Counted from the stretch's first letter, positions 2,401 to 61,080 are shown. The stretch: 64,000 nt of DNA from Biomphalaria glabrata (GCF_947242115.1 NC_074716.1:24112637-24176636), one strand, 5' to 3'. Made by a program: numbers and translations. The notes: generated by a model not told the origin, from the sequence alone.

Positions 2401-4924
2401 TTGATATGTTTTTATTGATTGGATTGAGGTGCAGGGTTAAATTTGAATCTATTTTCAATCTAGTGATGATCACTCTTGTTTGTTAGAAAACTATGTGACT
2501 GACAAACATGAAATCGCCATTAAATTTATTTACCCTTAACATTTAGTTCTTGCAGAGAAAAAACAAAAGTAAAGATATGTTCTCTATTGCGGGACGTGGC
2601 TTATCAGCCTGTACACCGGATGCACTAAAGAGTTACTTCCGATGTTCATGAAGATCTCTAAACTTTTTTTAAAAACATTTCTTGATGCGATAGTCGAACT
2701 TTTTACAAAAATTTTATTATTTTGTTTTTGTCCTTTTTTTTTTATAACCAAAAGACAGTAGCAGTCAGACATGTAAGATTTTATTTTCTGTTCATTTTTC
2801 CTATTTATTATCCGTTCGGAGAGGTCATAGGGTGTAGAGTTGTATTTTACCCCGTTAAGTTTTTCTACTTGTTACAAAAAAAAAGAAAGGTGTTCGATTT
2901 ATTTATTTTAAAGAGTTCAATAGTTTTCAGTCGAATAAATGAAAAGATGAAGGGGGGGGGGGTAGGTGGGAGCAGGTCAGCAAGTATCAATGTCATCAGC
3001 AAAAATCCAAATTCTAATTAAAAACAAATTAAAATGTGTAAAATTTAGCCTGAGTTTTTTTTTGACATGACAAATTGACAGATTTACCGCTGTGCTTGGT
3101 CTTATGAATAGGTTCGTCTAGTCGTGTTTCCCTCTGAACTGAAGTGATCCAAGAGCTATGAGTAGCAATGCTTTTATTGGACGTTTTATTCCGCTCATAT
3201 TAAATAAATATTTTCCTGAACCCGAAATCTGTGAATGTGTCTAGGACTCAAGATCGAGATCAATTGGAGAATAACTAAAATCATATTTGCTCTAATAACT
3301 TTTGACAGGCGGACAAGGTGACATCAAACAAAGAAACGCCTATGTAGGCCTAATATGTTCATTTCTATTTTAGTATTTAATAACATATATCAGAATAATT
3401 TATTTGTGAACAAAACAGGGTTGAAACCAATATTATTTACATATAAAATTAATCATAAACCATAAGAGTTAAGTGACAAACGGACTGGCTACTTGGGTCA
3501 TCGGGCAAATGACAATAAGTACCATAAATGTGATTGGCATTCCTTTACCTGTCATAAAAGATCTTTACAGACTTAACTGTGTAATACTAATGAAATACTC
3601 TCGTAATAAAGGAATCATCTAGATCTATAAACATATATCATGCTACAGGTGATTTACAATCCTCTATATACACTAAGCGATTTTAACAAACAACATATGG
3701 TTTATTTGTATAGCTCTGTAGAAGTTGCAGTCGTTTAAACAAACTCGGGTGAATGTATAACGAGACACTGAGTTTATAAACTAGTCATGAATGTCCTGTT
3801 ATAAAGGGGTATTATTGTATACAGTCATCTATAGATTCACTCTGACCAAAAATGACTCAAATATAGCGTGTCCTGTCAAATGTGAATTATATTGGTTCAT
3901 CGCAAGATCTCAGGATTTCCCCGTTACGAATTTTACGCCGCTAGGGCTAGAGAAACGAGTGGAGGTGAACAGAACGATAACTCTTGTAAGTGATGGAGAT
4001 GAGAGCGAAGAGAGTTGTCTTGTAATAACTGTTCAAATGGTTGTTACTGAATTTAAGAAGTACAATTTTTGACTCACGTAACTTGTGAAATTGTTTGGCA
4101 CTTTGAAACGTTTAAAGAGTAGACTAAAAAACATTTTGATAATGGTACAATGACAAGGTTTCATATTTAAGGCTTTTGATAAAGTTTGTGTTTAAAGAAC
4201 CTTTTTATTCTTAATAAGTTAATGTATTGCAAAAACGTTCACATTGCTCCTGTAATAAAGTATTCTATTCAAGCTAATTGTGCTGCAATCGTACAATTGT
4301 TTGTACAAATAGCCATTTCTCAGAATGACCTCTATTTGTAGCATGCTTATTACATTTTATTTGACCGAGGGGGGGGGGCGGATGTTTTCACTACAGTCTG
4401 AGAGAGATTCAGTCCTATAGACATTTCAAGGCCCACATCGATATTTAGTCCTATAGACATTTCAAGGCCCACATCGATATTCAAAATCATGGCTGTCTGG
4501 TTAATAGTCAAGTGTTTTTGTCTTGTTATTTGTTTACCAATTGTCCACTACATCATGTCTAGGCTATATTAGCTATAGACTTGACTTACTTTGGGACTCT
4601 TGGAGTGATGGCATTTAAATTGACAATTTTATTCGACACAGCCTGGTCTAGCGGGATGTCATATTGGTCCTCCATTCTGGACTTGTTTCTGATTCAAAAC
4701 CTGACAGTTCAAGACAAAAAGAAAACAAGAATTCATGTATTAGATTGTTGAAGTGTAACATAGTAGTTTTAAAATCTAACTAAATGTGTTTTTTTTTTAG
4801 TATTTTATGAGCTGTTCTGATAGTCTCCCTTTATTTCTCGGTTGTTTTATATTTCCTTTTCTCTCTTTTCTATTAAATCTCCTTCTTTTTTTTATTCTCT
4901 CCTGTTTCCCTATACCTAACTCTT

Positions 4925-12719: not shown

Positions 12720-13600
12720 TTGTGTGTAATGGAGTTTAAGTCTGAACTTACAAATGAGGTCATTCAAATTAGAAATAAAATAGGAGACAGCGTAGAGTCT
12801 TCTAGAGACTTAGGCGATCTAGCATTTGTAAGCCTCCATGCACTAAGGCTCCGTACTGGGATTAATCCTTTACAGCAAGGTCCATTTATCTGGCAATGGT
12901 CTGCCTGTCTCCGTACAGAGCGAGACCCCAGCATGCACCAGTTCTGTTTCAAGACTAGTCGTATCTTTGAATGTGTTTCTAAGCACACTGCAGTCGTACA
13001 GGATGTATGTAACTGTCTCGTCTTCCTCGTAGCAGTGTCGACATCTGGGATCGTGATTCTCTCGCGAAATAGGCTCCTATCGGACAGCGTCCAGTGCGGA
13101 ATCTTGCCAAGATTTCTTGCTCCTTTCTGTCTAGCTGCCACCATTCATATTTTCTGTTTGGGCGTTTGAGAACATTACAGACATCCCGTCCCTTGCTGCA
13201 ATGGTCCCAGCTTTGTACCATTTGGATTTGATCCATTCACAAATCTGAACTTTTGCAGTCTCGTATGTTTGCGGCTCCTCTGGTGGGTCTAAAAGCGTTC
13301 CTAGCTTCGCCAAACTGTCGGCCCTCTCGTTTCCTCTGATTCCACAATGCGATGGATCCCATTGCATCACCATACGTACCTGATATTTCCTTTCTGGGCG
13401 CTCCACGTACGACAGTTTTTGCCAGTTGTGTAGGCCATGCCTCTGTGCTCTCGAGATCTTGCAGGCAAGAAAGTGTTTGTAAAAAGAGTTACATTGGCCG
13501 GTGCCGCAGTTCCTCCTCAATACGTCTTTCAAAATGCTGCAAGGCATTCTTGATTCCTTACATTTCCGCAACGTAATTGCTTTCTCCTGCACATGGGCCT
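12720..13600 (-). mobile_element. Degenerate non-LTR retrotransposon 3' portion (RNase H domain plus C-terminal Cys/His motif), with frameshifts
   Basis: Minus-strand ORFs give ...VRMVMQWDPSHCGIRGNERADSLAKLG (RNase H signature W.PsH.GI.GNE.AD.LAK). A shifted frame gives ILARFRTGRCPIGAYF..., the RLRTGHTRLN-like motif of LINE ORF2 C-termini. Confidence 0.7.
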
Positions 13601-18535: not shown

Positions 18536-19482
18536 CTGAATAAAAGTATCAAACAAATAGGTTGAAATGGTTTTGTTTCATAAAGAAACTGTCTATCTAT
18601 GCACATGTAAGACTTATATCAGCTAGTTACATTAATCAAATCCTTCACACGTAGCAGTTGCAAATAGTGTTCCCACCCCCAATTGAGAACCCCAAATTAT
18701 CCTCATCCAAAACTAGTCCACCCCTCTCTCAACATTGCCTTTATAAATGTTAAATTGTACCTTTGAGAAAAGTGGGAAGGGGCAAATATTCCCCAATATT
18801 TTTAGGCCATCTGCTAATTAGAGTTGAAATTAAATTAAAATTAAACTTAGCAACTCATTTGTGGTTCAATCACATGGTAAGGAAGAGTTCTTAAAAGCGT
18901 TGTCCTTGCATATACAATATGAAATGTGTTTTATCATTGTATCTATTTCTGACTTTCAATTTGATCATGATATTGTAATTTATTATTTTTGAATTTTGTG
19001 TTTTCATTAATTTAAGTAATTATAACTGATACATTTTCAAATCTTGCCAAGACTAAATGGACTGAAGTAGCTTTAGATAAGAGAAAGCTGTACTATCTGC
19101 TAGCCCTAAATACAAATGCATTCTCATGCATGAACTGTGAAGTTTGCTGCTACATAATCAGCTTGCTTAGTCAAAGAAGATTCTAGCCCAACTCAAAAAA
19201 ACCTAAACTGGCTTGGTAGCATCAATTGTCTTTCAAAACAGAAAGAGACATATGTAACAATGTTTTCTAATCTACTGCCTAAGAGAGTTTCTAGACTTTG
19301 TCATTTTACTAATGATGTTACTTTTTGTAGATATTAATATTGTAACTGAACTGTGATGCTGGTCGGTGTAGCCCTATGGGTAATCAGCCGACACATGCAA
19401 CACAGGCCTGTGTACTTAAAAAAGACTGATGTAAAATTTCTCCATTTAGGTCAATAGGGTTTTGGTTATCTGACTATGAACT

Positions 19483-20618
19483 GGTGACCGGTCATTTCAT
19501 CCCCGGTCACTTCATCCCCAGTCACTTCATTACCGGTCACTTCATCCCCGGTCATTTCATCCCCAATTAAGTATTTTATTTATAAATATGATTATGTAGA
19601 ATGCTTTTTGACATTTTATGACTTGTTACTAATGCGTTTATAGTGTCTCCTCTTCCACTTTGTTTTCTTAATGAGAAATCTTATATTATATTGTAAATCT
19701 GGGTGTCTACTTAACTATGGCGCTTCTATTGGATGTGGGGATTGTAATATCATAATTTTATCCGGATCGAAGGCCAAGGTTTGATGGAAGTAGTAAAAAA
19801 TCATTTGAGAGATAGAAGTGCGATTACAATAATTATGACCGTGCCGCTGATAACTTATCTTCAAAGGCCAAGGTGTGGTGCAAGTAGAGGAAATCTTTTG
19901 AGAGATAGAAATACGATTACAATAATTATAACCATGCCGCTGATAACTTATCATCAAAGGCCAAGGTGTAGTGAAAGTACGACCATGTTTCACTTTATTT
20001 TGTTTTTCAATCGCTCTTTCTTGAAAATGGGCGCGTCATTTTTAGCCCTGAAATAAGGTTTTATTTTTTTCTAATAAAGGCGGAGTTCACCCATCCTCGG
20101 GATATATGTCGCCTGTATAAGTTTTGCTTTAATTCCTTTTAAACATTAACGTGTTAAATTTTGTCATTTATATAAAAAAATGAATATATTAAATATCGCT
20201 CATTTCATGATTTTTTAAATTAAAATTTGGTAGATAAAAATGATCAGATGATGAAAATATCAGGGGATGAAATGACCGGGGATGAAGTGACCAGGGGATG
20301 AAGTGACCAGGGGATGAAGTGACCAGGGGATGAAATGACTGGGGATGAAGTGACCGGGGATGAAGTGACCGGGGATGAAATGACTGGGGATGAAGTGAGC
20401 GGGGATGAAATGACCGGGGATGAAGTGAGCGGGGATGAAATGACTGGGGATGAAGTGACCAGGAGATGAAGTGACCAGGGGATGAAATGACTGGGGATGA
20501 AGTGACCGGGGATGAAGTGACCGGGGATGAAGTGACCGGGGATGAAGTGAGCGGGGATGAAGTGAGCGGGATGAAATGACCGGGGATGAAGTGAGCGGGG
20601 ATGAAATGACCGGGAACC
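19483..20618. mobile_element. Foldback-type non-autonomous DNA transposon, copy 1. Terminal inverted arrays of the 15-mer GGTCACTTCATCCCC / GGGGATGAAGTGACC, internal 120-bp tandem pair, 8-bp TSD TATGAACT.
   Basis: Left end ggtgaccggtcatttcatcccc at 19483. Right end ggggatgaaatgaccgggaacc at 20618. The identical 8-mer tatgaact flanks it at 19475-19482 and 20619-20626. About 24 copies of the 15-mer on the right arm. Confidence 0.75.
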
Positions 20619-21239
20619 TATGAACTATGTGTTTCTTTAAAAAGGTTGGGTCAAGTCAGTCAGACTCATGGAGGAAATAGAAGGTTAAGGCAAGAACGAC
20701 ATTCACTTTTACAAGTTGTGTATAGCTGTTATATTCAGACACTGACCTTTGCCCATTTGTAAAGTATTTGATTGTTTTATCTTCATTATTTTTTACACTC
20801 ATTAAAGTGTCTCGTTATATCAGAGCCCTAGATGTCTGGTTCTTGACTTAGCCACATTGTTTTGTCAAGGGTTTAGAGAGAATTGTAACAATTTTATATT
20901 TTGAAGAAGTAAATTGTAGGACAGTCTCATTCAAAAAAACCATATAAAAAGGGAATTAGAAAAACCATATAAAAAAATAACACAGATTTAAACAAAAAAT
21001 ATTGGCTCATCCAACATGTGACTAAAGGTGTCCAATGATGGAATTCTATGGCTGACATCAATAACAAATCAAAAGAAAGTTAAAATAATTTTTTCCAAGA
21101 CATAAGCACATAGCTGCTAAACTTATAGTAGAATCCCATTTAACCTTAGCTACACTGATACATGCTTGAATTAAATTTGCTTTCTAAGCTTTGAGGAATA
21201 TTTATTTAATTTAAATCCCAAAACCATTCAAAACACAAG

Positions 21240-21358
21240 ATTTCATTCCAGATACTTAAACATGGCTTCATAGAAAGAAACTTAAACATGGCTACTTAGA
21301 AAGAAACTTAAACATGGCTACTTAGAAAGAAACTTAAACATGGCTACTTTGAAAGAAA
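21240..21358. repeat. 25-bp tandem repeat x4 (cttaaacatggctacttagaaagaaa)
   Basis: Direct reading. Confidence 0.8.
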
Positions 21359-21610
21359 TTTAAACATGGCTAGTATTAGATCGTCTTTGAAGTTTTGTGT
21401 TAGGCCACAGCTGGAACTGCAAAGCCACTTGAAGTATTACAGGACTCCTTGATCTTCAGGCTCAATGACAAGCCTTACTATTAATTTCAGTCCACAATAT
21501 TTGATTCCAGACACTGAAAGACATTGCTAGTGTTGAATGGAACCGTAGGAAGCAAAGATGATGACAAATACCAAGAATCTTATCATTTGTAACAGTTGAA
21601 CAACAATCAC

Positions 21611-21715
21611 CTAATAAGGATCTTGTAAATGAGCTCTTCTGTGACTCTCTTTCTTGATCAGCTCTTTCTATTGCTTCTTCTGAGATCAAAAGTTGTGAAC
21701 CCATGTCCATATCAC
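21611..21715 (-). CDS. PARP4: Acidic exon: (G)DMDMGSQLLISEEAIERADQERESQKSSFTRSLL
   Basis: Acceptor aatcag|GT, donor TTAG|gtgatt. 105 bp, phase 1-1. In frame with flanking exons. Confidence 0.45.
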
Positions 21716-22218
21716 CTGATTAGGATTATTTAAAAAAAAACAAAGTCAAGATAATGTGTAGATAACATATATCACACTTCATTTTAATACTACTATATAT
21801 GTGTGTGAAACTAAGAATATATATTATAGCTCAAGACATAACAGAAAGTCTAGATAATTATTCATCATATTTGTGCTAATATGTTTATATTGCGTAACTG
21901 TTTGTTGTGGATGTTTTTGTGAGAAAGTACTTAAAAAGGATATGACATACTAAAAGGACAGAGTTCAATGTCTACTTCTATCAACACAAAGTCTCTATTC
22001 ATTCATTGTTATTATTAATGTCTACAGTATTTTATTGATTTCTCTGTGACAACAGAACAATTTTCATCATTTTATTAAATGAACAAAACATTGTCAAAAC
22101 TACCTCAAAACATGGAGCTTCCAGCAATAGGCTTATATTCAGATGTTAGCCAACAGTTTCAAATGTGAAACCATTTCACTAATTCATGATCTATTAAACT
22201 CTCCAACAATTATCTTAC

Positions 22219-22272
22219 CTGAGCCCCCTCTACGGGAATATCTTGGTCTCCTTGACATTCTTTTTTTCATAG
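22219..22272 (-). CDS. PARP4: K/R-rich exon: (A)MKKRMSRRPRYSRRGGS
   Basis: Acceptor cactag|CT, donor CAG|gtaaga. 54 bp, phase 1-1. Resembles the human PARP4 basic stretch 'LSKRKHRKIPFSKRKMELS'. Could alternatively be a first coding exon. Confidence 0.45.
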
Positions 22273-23342
22273 CTAGTGAGTAAAAAAAATTCAATACTTT
22301 AGGAAAATTCATTACAGTTTTAATTAAAATCAATTAATAAATGCCACTAGAGATTCTACTTATTACCTAACAGAAATAACAGCTGTTTTTCATGGACAAC
22401 TGGTTTTAATGTACAATCAAAATTTAATTTTGTATTTTGTCTGATTTTAATCTTGTTTTTAGTTATCATGTCAAGTAGACCCTACTACATTAACCAGTCA
22501 TTCAGCAGTAAGTCTGTCTTAAACAGCACAGGCAGACTCTCATGGTGAGGGTAAAACCTGTGTAGGGCAATTATCCATCGCCAAAATGCACAACATGGTA
22601 TTTTGACAAAATAGCCACAGTACAACTTGCTATGGTGATGCATACCAAATTCTGGAAAACTAAAACTTATTGAATATAATAAAAGATAACATCACATTTG
22701 ATTATCTTTTATAAGTGCTGTAACAAATCTGGATTATTTCACTAATTCTAGGAAATTCTCTACTAAAAATAAAAACATGTGTTTTGAAATATGGACACAT
22801 ACAATATTGTTTAGGATTGTGCTTCTATGTGGCATGATTTCCATTACTAGTACGCCATTGAATAATTTTCACAAGCAATTAGATAATTATAAAGCAACAT
22901 TAGGTTACTTATTCAATTATTCTCATTTAAAACTTTGGTTATTTTTGTAGTATGCTCCCGTGAATGTTTAAAATATTTAATTGCTTGAAGATGTTCTTTG
23001 CCTTCTTTTGTTATCCAACATATGTATGATAAACTTGATAACTTATTTTATTTGCACTGTTGGGGATGGAGCTATAATCATCAACTTATTTTATTTGCAC
23101 TGTTGGTGATGGAGCTATAATCATCATAATAACTTCAAGTTTTACATTCTCAGAAACATTAATAATAATCTTCACTCCTAAATTAAAAATCTCTCCTCCA
23201 AAGCAAGGTAAACAAAAATTTTCTTTTCAGTCACAAAACAAGCAAAATAATTTTTTTTCCCCCTTTAAACAAAACTTATCTAAGGAAAAGAACTGAAAAA
23301 TAGCTGCAGTATATCTCAATAAGTTCCCTTTTCAGATCTTTA

Positions 23343-23500
23343 TGGCAGATGATGTAAAGGTCATCTGTTTTTGTGGCCCATGGTTAATGAAGGTGTCATG
23401 TGGATAGCACACTGACCAACTACCTTTATTTTTCCCAGACTCCTGTCAGGTACCCATTAGAGCTGGGTGGACTTAGAGGCGCCCAAAGATCCTGAAATTA
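23343..23500 (-). mobile_element. tRNA-derived SINE, copy 4 (truncated, lacks head)
   Basis: Reverse-complement match to the SINE tail and body (catgtggatagcacactgaccaac...cccattagagctgggtggactt). Confidence 0.65.
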
Positions 23501-23805
23501 AGTATATATCTCAATAGGAATAAGCTCCTTTTTTCTATTTAAAACAAAATTTATTAACCACTTATGGCATAACTAGTTGGTAAATTTTAAAAAATTGATA
23601 CATGTTTCTGTTAGATATAACAAATAATTTTGCAAAGTTTCAATTTGATGCCAGAATGGGTGAGGGGGAAATAATGTGTAAAAAAAATATTATTTGTTAA
23701 AAATCACTGACTGACTTGAGTCACGAACAAGTGGGCACAAGCAAAACCCAAATTAGAAACAACCTTGAGCAAACAAACACAAGCACAGAGGCAGGCATCC
23801 AATAC

Positions 23806-24799
23806 GGTTCCTGGTCATTTCATCCCCGTCACTTCATCCCTGGTCACTTCATCCCTGGTCATTTCATCCCCTGGTCATTTCATCCCCTGGTCATTTCATC
23901 CCCCAGTCATTTCATCCCCTGTTATTTTCATCATCTGATCATTTTATCTAACGAATAGTAATTGTAAATATCATGAAATGAGCAATATTTAATATATTTA
24001 TTATTTATTTAAATGACAAAAAGTGTAACACACATGATAATAAAATTAAAATTAAATGGCATTAAAAACTATAAAAATTTAACATGTATAAATATAGAAG
24101 TAATGTATACAAGTGTTATCCTGATATTATTAGAAAACAAAATAAAACCTTATTTCAAGGCTAAAAATGATGCGCCCAATTTCAAGAAAGAGCGATTGAA
24201 AAATAAAATTAAGTGAAACATGGTCATACTTTTACCACAGCTTGGCCTTTGATGATAAGTTATCAGCAGCACGGTCATAATTATTCTAATCGCACTTCTA
24301 TCTCTCAAAAGATTTCCACTACTTGCAACACACCTTGGCCTTTGATGATAAGTTATCAGCGGCATGGTCATAATTATTATAATCGCACTTCTATCTCTCA
24401 AATGATTTTCACTACTTCCACTAAAACTTGGCCTTTGATCATTACGTCATGCGCAGAATAATATTTTAATATTACATCCACCACATCCACTAGAAGCCCT
24501 ATAGCTAAGTACACACCTAGATTTACAATATATTATAAGATTTCTCATCAAGAATGCAAAGTGGAAGAGGAAACACTATAAACGCATTAGTAACATGTCA
24601 AAAAATATCAAAAAGCATTCTACATAATCATATTTATATATTAGATAAAATGAGGGCTTAAAGTCAAAGCCATAACAGCACAATTAAACAATGAAAAAAG
24701 AAAAATATTTAATTGGGGATGAAATGACCAGGGGATGAAATGACCAGGGGATGAAGTGACTGGGGAATGAAGTGACTGGGGATGAAATGACCAGTCACC
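23806..24799. mobile_element. Foldback-type element, copy 2 (inverted relative to copy 1), TSD (a)TCCAATAC
   Basis: Termini ggttcctggtcatttcatcccc and ggggatgaaatgaccagtcacc. The internal 120-bp repeats at 24213-24461 are the reverse complement of 19790-20040. Flanked by atccaatac on both sides. Confidence 0.7.
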
Positions 24800-24812
24800 A
24801 TCCAATACATAC

Positions 24813-24872
24813 CAGAGAATTTGGGTGAAATAGACTTCTCTTCAGATTCATCTGCATCCACTTCCATTTCAT
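24813..24872 (-). CDS. Cassette exon A-a: (D)EMEVDADESEEKSISPKFS
   Basis: Acceptor cattag|AT, donor TCTG|gtatgt. 60 bp, phase 1-1. The donor abuts the foldback element that ends at 24799. Confidence 0.4.
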
Positions 24873-25094
24873 CTAATGATAAAAAAAAAGTTAGGTTAAA
24901 CATAAGTTTAAACATACTTGAATTTTGAGATTTTTTTTTTTTCTATTCAATACCTCTTACCTAGTCTAAAGCAACAAATAAATTCATATTAGTCAATACA
25001 GGGGACATAATGACAGGATGGTACTTTTGAACTGAGATTTTCAAGATTTTTTAAGACATTCCTGAGTCCGGTCAGCTCTAATTAATACATGACA

Positions 25095-25200
25095 TAGGTT
25101 GTGACCTTGTGTGACATGATTGGTTGTGACCTTGTGTGACACGATTGGTTGTGACCTTGTGTGACATGATTGCTTGTGACCTTGCGTGACATGATTAGTA
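25095..25200. repeat. 25-bp tandem repeat x4 (tgtgaccttgtgtgacatgattggt)
   Basis: Direct reading. Confidence 0.8.
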
Positions 25201-26809: not shown

Positions 26810-27066
26810 GAGGTGCAGTGGCTGAATGGCAAAGTGCTTGGCTTCCGAACCAAGGAGTCCTAGGTTTGAATCCTGGTGAAGACTGGGATTTTTAATTTCG
26901 GGATTTTTAGGGCACCTCTGTGAGTCCACCCAGCTCTAATGGGTACCTGAATTTAGTTGGGTAAAAGTAAAGGCGGTTGGTTGTTGTGCTGGCCACATGA
27001 CATCCTCCTTAAGTGTGGGCCACAGAAACATATGAACTGTACATTATATGTTCTATAGATTGCAAG
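26810..27066 (+). mobile_element. tRNA-derived SINE, copy 5 (inside tandem unit B)
   Basis: Head aggtgcagtggctgaatggcaaagtgcttggcttccgaacc...ggtttgaatcctgg, then body and tail. Absent from paralogous units A and C, so it inserted after the duplication. Confidence 0.8.
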
Positions 27067-55039: not shown

Positions 55040-55630
55040 CAAATATTGTCTCCTTCCTCTGCCTCCTAGCCATTAACTTCATAATGAGGAAAGCAATGAA
55101 TCAGACTGACTTCAGTATTCCATGGCATGAACAGAATCGAATGATGGACTTGGACTAGAACTAGCCATTAACTTCATAATGAGGAAAGCAATGAATCAGA
55201 CTGACTTCAGTATTCCATGGCATGAACAGAATCGAATGATGGACTTGGACTAGAACTAGCCATTAACTTCATAATAAGGAAAGCAATGAATCAGACTGAC
55301 TTCAGTATTCCATGGCTGAACAGAATCGAATGATGGACTTGGACTAGAACTAGCCATTAACTTCATAATGAGGAAAGCAATGAATCAGACTGACTTCAGT
55401 ATTCCATGGCATGAACAGAATCGAATGATGGACTTGGACTAGAACTAGCCATTAACTTCATAATGAGGAAAGCAATGAATCAGACTGACTTCAGTATTCC
55501 ATGGCATGAACAGAATCGAATGATGGACTTGGACTAGAACTAGCCATTAACTTCATAATGAGGAAAGCAATGAATCAGACTGACTTCAGTATTCCATGGC
55601 ATGAACAGAATCGAATGATGGACTTGGACT
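55040..55630. repeat. 119-bp tandem repeat of about 5 units, roughly 270-860 bp upstream of the PARP4 ATG
   Basis: Unit ctagccattaacttcataatgaggaaagcaatgaatcagactgacttcagtattccatggcatgaacagaatcgaatgatggacttggactagaa repeated head-to-tail. Confidence 0.85.
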
Positions 55631-59874: not shown

Positions 59875-60250
59875 AAGCCATCACTTGCCCCAGCGCAGCC
59901 AAAGGGGTTTTGAGTTTAAAACCCCTACCATGGGGTTTTGAGTTTGAAACCCCCTAACAAGGGGTTTTGAGTTTGAAACCCCCTACCACGGGGGGGGGGG
60001 GAAGACGCACTTTAGTGACATGTTTTTTGCTTTGATTTTGTTAATTTTAGGTGAAATTTTAATACTAAACCATCATTTGCCCCAGCACAGCTAAAGGGGT
60101 TTTGAGTTTAAAACCCCTACCAGGGGGGTTAGAGTTTAAAACCTCTACCAGGGGGTTTTGAGTTTAAAACCCCTAACAGGGGGTTTTGAGTTTAAAACCC
60201 CCTACCAGGGGTTTTGAGTTTGAAACCCCCCTACCAGGGTTTTTTGTAGT
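59875..60250. repeat. Roughly 30-bp tandem array (ggggttttgagtttaaaacccctaccagg)n plus a roughly 140-bp higher-order duplication
   Basis: Direct reading. Lies inside the 59730-61774 element. Confidence 0.8.
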
Positions 60251-61080
60251 TAAATCCCCTTCTTCTATAAAACAAAACACACAAAAAATGCAAACGATAA
60301 TCCCCAAATTCCAAGTGCACAGTTAAGGAAGATTTTGATTTAAAAACCCCCTCCAAAATTTACGATAGACCCCCTCTTCAATATGAAAAAAAAGCAAATT
60401 ATGCACTCAAAATGTTATGAGCGCTGCTAAATGGGTTTTGACTCAGTTTTAAGTTTTAACTCCCCTCCAGTGGAGTTTGAAGCAAAAAATACTATCAATA
60501 ATAAAAAAAAAAAGCAAATTACACACTCTAAAATCTAAGAGCGTAGCCATATGGGTTTTGAGTTTAAACCCCCCGCCAGCGGGGTTTGAAGTTAAAAAAT
60601 ACATCTTCATGTAAAAAAAAAAGCAAATTACACCCTAAAATTATTTGAGCGTAGCCAAGCGAATTGGGGGTTTTGAGTTTAAACTCCTTTTCTCCAGATG
60701 GTTTTGAGTTTAAAATCCCCCTACAGAGCGTTGTGAGGTGGAAAACCTCTATCTTCAATATTACTCTAAAGCAAACTACAGTTACCAAATTATATGATCG
60801 TAGCTAAATTGGGTTTTGAATTTAAAAAACAACAATAAAGTCCTGAGATTTTTAGTTTAAAACCTCTAACAGATGATTTTGACGATAAAACTTCACTTTT
60901 CGATATAAAATCTAAAGCAAACTACAGTCACCCAATTCCAAGAGCGTATCCAAGAGAGGTTACACATTTCTACCAGTGGCGGGGTTCCATTAATAATGTG
61001 CAGTGAATAGTCATCTGCCGAAATTGAAAAACACTAAATGTGGCTCAAAAAAGATGGCTAAGAGAGATTTTAGGAGTTAG

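Follow-up and report, generated by a model that had tools for sequence, protein, structure and literature searches.

The window analyzed here, a 64-kb stretch of Biomphalaria glabrata DNA (GCF_947242115.1, NC_074716.1:24112637-24176636; GC content 34.1%), contains two homologous elements in opposite orientation, copy 1 at 19483-20618 (1136 bp) and copy 2 at 23806-24799 (994 bp), and neither another copy nor a fragment was found in the rest of the 64 kb. A first-pass annotation of this DNA had placed two inverted copies of a foldback-type transposon at exactly these positions. Direct reading of 19300-25000, together with a pairwise alignment in which copy 2 was reverse-complemented, confirmed both copies and their boundaries, and the presence of defined termini and target-site duplications (TSDs) supports the foldback-type reading. 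In the pairwise alignment, homology between the copies ends at identical terminal bases, and the flanks beyond the TSDs cannot be aligned. Both copies are ∼1.0–1.1 kb in length and lack coding capacity. With good confidence, we regard them as old, non-autonomous members of a single family of foldback-type cut-and-paste DNA transposons that were inserted independently of each other; the family is an ordinary kind of mobile element, seen here as non-coding, decayed copies.

Each copy carries one of each of two unlike ends, End A (GGTGACY) and End B (GGTTCCY). The termini are GGTGACC and GGTTCCC in copy 1 and GGTGACT and GGTTCCT in copy 2, with GGTCATTTCATCCCC coming next after each. Reading inward, End A is GGTGACY GG TCATTTCATCCCC... 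and End B is GGTTCCY GG TCATTTCATCCCC..., and the 22-nt end sequences of the window elements are GGTGACYGGTCATTTCATCCCC and GGTTCCYGGTCATTTCATCCCC. The 7-nt motifs of End A and End B have five of seven bases in common and mismatch at positions 4-5; because this mismatch is present in both copies, the asymmetry of the ends is a property of the family and not the result of random decay.

The arms that follow these termini consist of tandem 14–16-nt units (GGGGATGAARTGACC), each comprising TCAYTTCATCCCC and a spacer of 1–3 nt, the unit also being written GGTCAYTTCATCCCC. In copy 1, which lies on the plus strand, the End-A arm (19483-19564) is made up of GGTGACC, GG, and 5 units (TCAYTTCATCCCCNG; period 15 x 5.1 by Tandem Repeats Finder, TRF), and the End-B arm (20263-20618; period 15 x 23.2) contains 23 units and ends ...GGGGATGAAATGACCGGGAACC (inward, GGTTCCCGG...). 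In copy 2, on the minus strand, TRF, the alignment, and the unit parse define an End-B arm (23806-23919) of GGTTCCTGG followed by 7 units, and TRF and the unit parse an End-A arm (24715-24799) of 5 units that ends ...GGGGATGAAATGACCAGTCACC (inward, GGTGACTGG...). The expectation that the arms would prove to be tandem 15-mers numbering from 5 to more than 20 was therefore correct, with End A holding the same number of units in both copies and End B ranging from 7 to 23. Units are mostly 15 nt long in copy 1 and mostly 16 nt long in copy 2, a "T" variant occupies the outermost and innermost unit of all four arms, and the inner boundaries of the arrays are shared by the two copies.

Within the window, the unit is strongly enriched in the arms. 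The 14-mer GGGGATGAARTGAC, allowing up to 2 mismatches, has 42 matches in the window, 40 of which fall within the four arms, as compared to an expectation of 0.58; none of 100 shuffles reached 42 matches. The left arm of copy 1 is 90–94% complementary to its right arm, and when copy 2 is folded as single-stranded DNA its arms pair, with a free energy of −145.5 kcal/mol vs −81.8 ± 5.0 for shuffles (z = −12.8). The elements thus have the structure expected of foldback transposons, namely inverted arms built of short repeats (here 15-mers, in arms of 80–355 bp) whose length varies between ends and between copies. Between the arms lie non-coding middle segments (19565-20262 in copy 1 and 23920-24714 in copy 2, as delimited by TRF and by alignment of the copies), each including a tandem repeat that the first-pass annotation had described as two repeats of roughly 120 bp; TRF instead shows a 93-bp period, present in 2.3 copies at 19766-19979 and in 2.2 copies at 24236-24439. 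No Pfam families were detected in the open reading frames (ORFs) of the copy 1 middle segment.

Copy 1 is bounded by an exact 8-bp direct repeat, TATGAACT, that adjoins its termini at 19475-19482 and 20619-20626, an arrangement with a chance probability of 4^-8 per element; assigning one End-B terminal base to the target would lengthen the repeat to 9 bp (CTATGAACT). With the termini set as in copy 1, the exact 9-mer ATCCAATAC abuts both termini of copy 2, at 23797-23805 and 24800-24808. The clean 8-bp duplications originally reported for both elements hold for copy 1 and fail for copy 2, where the proposed 8-mer TCCAATAC stops short of the right terminus by an unexplained A. Each copy has retained its own matched TSD, and hence no inversion has occurred by recombination between them. 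Composite-transposon and inversion readings of the pair were both considered and rejected, as the outer flanks of the pair share no duplication and each copy keeps its own TSD.

The middle segments are ∼89% identical (∼11% divergence) in the alignable stretches outside the arrays; when a ∼100-bp non-homologous patch is counted, the overall p-distance is 0.158 (Kimura two-parameter distance 0.18). Eight indel events separate the copies (60, 15, and 14 bp, and smaller). Because of this divergence and these indels, and because the flanks are unrelated and the TSDs differ, the sequences indicate that both copies are old, were inserted independently, and derive from different, diverged source copies. 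Recent mobility within the locus, as previously suggested, is not compatible with this degree of identity, the eight indels, the ∼100-bp patch, and the unlike array lengths and unit variants of the two copies.

Relatives of the arrays were sought in other sequence collections with DNA pattern scans that required two adjacent units and that covered metagenomes, prokaryotic genomes, and viral contigs. The metagenome scan returned five loci, of which only one, on a eukaryotic contig (L004), was a true array, its unit identical to that in the window; the rest were chance matches. The L004 array is solo, with no recognizable terminus. Prokaryotic genomes yielded four chance matches to the adjacent-unit pattern and viral contigs none. 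Because four reading frames of the array are open, its translation was also searched exhaustively with HMMER, and this search identified a B. glabrata protein, NCBI KAI8735132.1 (P0239), that reads ...LKSRFPVTSSPVTSSLVTSSPVISSP...GHFIPRSLHP (also shown as ...SRFPVTSSPVTSSLVTSSPVISSP...). In this record, GGTCAYTTCATCCCC is translated in three frames, and the RFP that comes before them corresponds to (A)GGTTCCC, the End-B terminus; the record places the family in a planorbid snail. The record is titled "hemocyanin-like 1 (Hcl-1) gene"; what it translates is one transposon arm, and the record is an annotation artefact. A word-indexed protein search with the concatenated array translation returned nothing, and a full-text search of the accessible literature for the unit 14-mers gave no match.

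A sister family, with the unit GGTCACTTTGTCCCC, was found as well. At least 12 representative protein clusters (GHFVP/VTLSP/SLCPR) are translations of its arrays, and elements of ∼1.0–1.2 kb are present on contigs L015, L016/L018, L019, and L021 from environmental eukaryotic metagenomes. Their ends are GGTGTCC and GGTTACC (End A, GGTGTCCTTACACTTTGTCCCC; End B, GGT(T)ACCCKACACTTTGTCCCC, with terminus GGTTACCCKACACTTTGTCCCC), and two independent insertions have exact 9-bp TSDs, GTTTGTTAC in L016/L018 and GTTTCGGAC in L021. The terminal inverted repeats (TIRs) of the sister elements extend ∼180 bp into a unique inner domain, and no homology was detected between the middle segments of the window and sister elements (blastn E > 0.08). 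The two families have in common their end pair, GGTG.C / GGTT.CC, and the core CAYTTYRTCCCC, which are the parts that a transposase would be expected to recognize. One sister element is itself interrupted: a ∼365-bp insertion with its own TIRs (GAGCCCAAGACTTT... / ...AAAGTTTTGGGCTC) is nested in the End-A array of L015, at 2771-3135.

It might be argued that the pair is no transposon at all, and arose when a segment carrying satellite DNA was duplicated locally in inverted orientation, or that the arrays are simply a generic satellite with a 15-bp unit. The copies are indeed inverted and just 3.2 kb apart, and the solo or one-directional arrays on L004 and L020 show related 15-mers that have no second arm. 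However, similarity breaks off at identical terminal bases in the two copies while the flanks are unrelated, each copy is directly bordered by a direct repeat of its own, the End-B terminus recurs in KAI8735132.1, and the sister family occurs at other loci with TSDs of its own, so that we find this explanation scarcely credible. The L020 array (P0146; ∼1920-2110, GCA_022702835.1) is a one-directional run of GGTCATTCCATCCAA, which agrees with the window unit at 12 of 15 bases, and a C2H2 zinc-finger gene model opens with its translation, (SFHPR)n.

Which transposase superfamily mobilized these foldback-type transposons is a separate matter. Foldback architecture is polyphyletic and no transposase was found, and the superfamily can thus only be inferred; by analogy, we tentatively favor the Mutator-like element (MULE)/Foldback superfamily. 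When the GG termini are kept constant, the four informative insertions (the two in the window and the sister-family copies in L016 and L021) give TSD lengths of 8 (or 9), 9, 9, and 9 bp, which fall in the range of 8–10 bp, typically 9 bp, that characterizes MULE/Foldback elements. MULE TSDs are known to be 8–10 bp in length, and the transposase of the MULE Muta1 yields both 8- and 9-bp TSDs experimentally (PMC5225508). MULEs are, moreover, present in all surveyed mollusc genomes; hAT elements are ubiquitous in molluscs, and Merlin elements are nearly confined to cephalopods (PMC10294476).

The closest documented architecture is that of Tm1, a Phantom/MULE foldback element of Meloidogyne with asymmetric 7-bp end motifs, variable 13–15-bp tandem repeats, and TSDs of 8–10 bp, mostly 9, that have no target consensus (PMC3169594). 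Like the window elements, Tm1 combines unlike 7-bp outer motifs with arms whose length varies within and between copies, and its copies are mostly non-coding and resemble miniature inverted-repeat transposable elements. The resemblance does not extend to sequence. The Tm1 motifs are CGGTTAA (A1), CCTACCC (A2), GGA (B), and CGATTCAGTATCCGC (C), as opposed to GGTGACY, GGTTCCY, and GGTCAYTTCATCCCC in the window; there is no sequence similarity, the GA-rich inner motif of Tm1 is absent here, the Tm1 host is a nematode and not a mollusc, and the ends in the window still agree with each other at five of seven bases. The architectures are therefore alike, and the families are different. Drosophila Foldback (FB) and Tetris likewise have long repetitive inverted arms, a variable non-coding middle, 8–10-bp TSDs, and mostly defective copies, but their units and termini are unrelated to those described here, and Tetris has ∼220-bp repeats in arms of up to 1.7 kb, as compared to 80–355 bp of 15-mers in the window (PMC4079207).

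Several observations weigh against the reading advanced here. The superfamily is called solely from the length of the TSDs, the terminal bases, and the architecture, the last of which has arisen in more than one lineage (PMC3169594). Informative TSDs come from just four insertions, and no TSD is present at two sister copies, L015 and L019, which could reflect short-read assembly chimeras or recombination. Autonomous MULEs encode a DDE transposase (PF10551); no transposase family was detected by Pfam among the 109 window ORFs of at least 70 aa, and neither an autonomous copy nor a transposase was found. The one lead to a MULE gene (P0153/L017) had to be discarded, as its 15-mer, CGGTCAGTCTGCACC, is a different one, runs in one direction only, lacks any inverted counterpart within 14 kb, and was joined to ours by a low-complexity match only. 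Finally, the GG termini and 8–9-bp TSDs of the window element are those of Merlin elements as well. As for the discarded lead itself, its 16-copy CGGTCAGTCTGCACC array (L017 12715-13007, GCA_025402995.1) is read through as (VSLHP)n by an annotated gene model of 794 aa that also contains MULE-like fragments and is probably a chimera of repeats.

The elements could then be non-autonomous members of Merlin (IS1016/IS1595-like), an attribution that we consider unlikely and yet the most serious competitor to a MULE/Foldback origin. Without exception, Merlin families begin with 5'-GG and make TSDs of 8 or 9 bp; their TIRs span 24–462 bp, and many of them have tandem repeats inside the elements (PMC8101967). 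In a survey of molluscs, however, their occurrence was almost exclusively in cephalopods (PMC10294476), and the family described here is tied to the gastropod Biomphalaria. Unlike 7-nt end motifs followed by ∼15-nt tandem units are documented for the MULE Tm1 and not for Merlin, and the IS1595-type DDE transposase (DDE_Tnp_IS1595) that defines Merlin is absent from the window ORFs.

The P superfamily has a THAP-domain transposase and TSDs of 7–8 bp, the P element TIR (31 bp, CATG type) starts CATGATGAAATAAC when read inward, hAT elements have YARNG-type termini, and Galileo has 7-bp TSDs, P-type termini, and a P-like transposase. The first-pass annotation had likened the 15-mer core to the start of the P TIR, taken an 8-bp TSD to fit P or hAT, and suggested recent mobility within the locus, a view that would make the window copies a P- or hAT-superfamily foldback. 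The TSD of copy 1 can be taken as exactly 8 bp, and GATGAAATGAC and the P TIR segment GATGAAATAAC agree at 10 of 11 positions. The motif, however, reads GATGAAATGAC on the outward strand and GTCATTTCATC inward, is subterminal and repeated, and lies inside termini that are GGTG/GGTT and not CATG or YARNG; the 10/11 match was moreover chosen afterwards among thousands of known TIRs and hence is no evidence. Galileo does provide a P-superfamily precedent for foldback-like long TIRs with internal tandem repeats (PMC3688188), and hAT elements are found throughout molluscs (PMC10294476), but neither the window termini nor the TSD lengths fit Galileo. Neither do they fit P elements in general or the strict 8-bp TSD and YARNG ends of hAT, as 8 bp is seen at copy 1 only and three of the four informative TSDs (copy 2, L016, and L021) are 9 bp; lengths of 8, 9, 9, and 9 bp suit MULE/Foldback or Merlin (PMC5225508, PMC3169594, PMC8101967). 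A recent hop is further contradicted by the ∼11% divergence, the eight indels, and the different array sizes of the copies. P and hAT are thus a poor fit because of their termini and 8-bp TSD, and we hold this origin to be highly improbable; the remaining probability falls to other or unknown superfamilies.

As a mechanism, we propose that a DDE transposase whose gene lies elsewhere in the genome would mobilize the elements in trans. The 15-mer repeats may serve as multiple binding sites for this protein, for which we take Galileo as the functional model, since footprinting has shown that its THAP domain binds repeated sites in the tandem repeats of its long TIRs (PMC3688188). The transposase would pair (synapse) both arms and cut at the GG termini, and integration would proceed via a staggered cut of usually 9 bp and sometimes 8 bp. 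The arrays might later grow or shrink by slippage or unequal exchange, mainly at End B (23 vs 7 units, with 5 units at End A in both copies).

The TU elements of sea urchins (Liebermann et al. 1983; Hoffman-Liebermann et al. 1985) reportedly have an outer domain of 15-nt tandem units, an 8-bp TSD, and heterogeneous middle segments, and one class is said to have inverted repeats made of the outer domain only. Against this description, the arms in the window show a 15-nt period, but the window and sister TSDs are mostly 9 bp and the one taxonomic anchor found is a gastropod and not an echinoderm. To our knowledge, TU elements have never been classified to a superfamily. A speculative and unlikely extension of our results is that GGTG.C/GGTT.CC ends with GGTCAYTTYRTCCCC-type arrays define a clade of foldback elements found across molluscs, comprising two or more families whose interiors are unrelated and mobilized by a transposase from outside all the superfamilies discussed above, or else sequence-level relatives of TU; if the latter were true, it would link TU-type foldback elements to a transposase superfamily.

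The surrounding DNA carries a series of minus-strand exon domains: BRCT (53.1-53.3 kb), PARP catalytic (48.2-47.2 kb), VIT (44.1-43.3 kb), VWA (41.5-41.2 kb), and ubiquitin-like (31.0-30.6 kb), followed by a 546-codon open terminal ORF (18.5-16.9 kb). The order BRCT-PARP-VIT-vWA is that of PARP4 (vault PARP). Both elements are located in the interval from the ubiquitin-like exon to the terminal ORF, which puts them inside this PARP4-like minus-strand transcription unit, where they are probably intronic. Relatives of the VIT exon were found as exon-sized matches in Logan SRR32535475 (the best, with 91% identity) and in ERZ25073814, GCA_012263305.1, and GCA_022702875.1, and no homologue was found for the 505-aa terminal exon; neither exon gave a match over its whole length. 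A candidate 5' splice site lies 13 nt upstream of the start of copy 2 (…AAATTCTCTG/GTATGTATTGGAT/element; 24800-24812) and would belong to a putative 60-nt acidic minus-strand exon, DEMEVDADESEEKSISPKFS (24809-24880, minus strand), that has no Pfam match or homologues.

This location raises the question of whether the elements have been exapted by the host, e.g., as intronic hairpins that yield small RNAs or alter splicing of the PARP4-like transcript. Their foldback potential as single-stranded DNA or RNA is very strong, and copy 2 would start 13 nt past the candidate splice site. Nevertheless, the copies have been free to diverge, and differ by indels and in the size of their arrays, and the putative exon beside copy 2 lacks Pfam or homologue support. 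Nothing suggests a host function for the elements, and we consider exaptation very improbable.

Recognition of the family has practical value for annotation, in that the arrays would otherwise count as minisatellites or be translated into spurious proteins such as KAI8735132.1. The GGTG/GGTT end pair, kept across two families, provides a simple search key for an autonomous partner and thereby for the superfamily. Planorbid snails are schistosome hosts; should the family prove abundant in them, inverted intragenic copies a few kb apart would be potential substrates for hairpin formation or ectopic inversion.

Other repeats are present in the window. A tRNA-related repeat resembling a short interspersed nuclear element (SINE) occurs in four copies, at 1207-1422 and 26819-27060 on the minus strand and at 1580-1891 and 23336-23510 on the plus strand, one of which sits between foldback copies 1 and 2; the copies have a common core (...CAGGTACCCATTAGAACTGGGTGGACTCAGAGGCGCC...) and a tRNA-like end, and the only Rfam match obtained is one to tRNA at 26819-76 (29.8 bits). 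Small tandem repeats at 21250-21372 (26 bp x 4.7), 23040-23126 (43 bp x 2), and 25097-25196 (25 bp x 4) lie between or just past the foldback copies and are unrelated to the 15-mer. A retroelement remnant at 12720-13600 has a weak RNase H match (WDPSHCGIRGNERADSLAK; Pfam E = 0.008) and overlapping ORFs on both strands. Upstream of the PARP4-like BRCT exon, 55066-55630 is a near-perfect tandem repeat (99% matches) of 95 bp x 6 or, alternatively, 284 bp x 2. Lastly, 59902-60657 contains arrays of a 28–29-bp unit with internal dyad symmetry (GGGGTTTTGAGTTTGAAACCCC...) together with a 109-bp x 2 repeat, and may represent another repeat-armed element.

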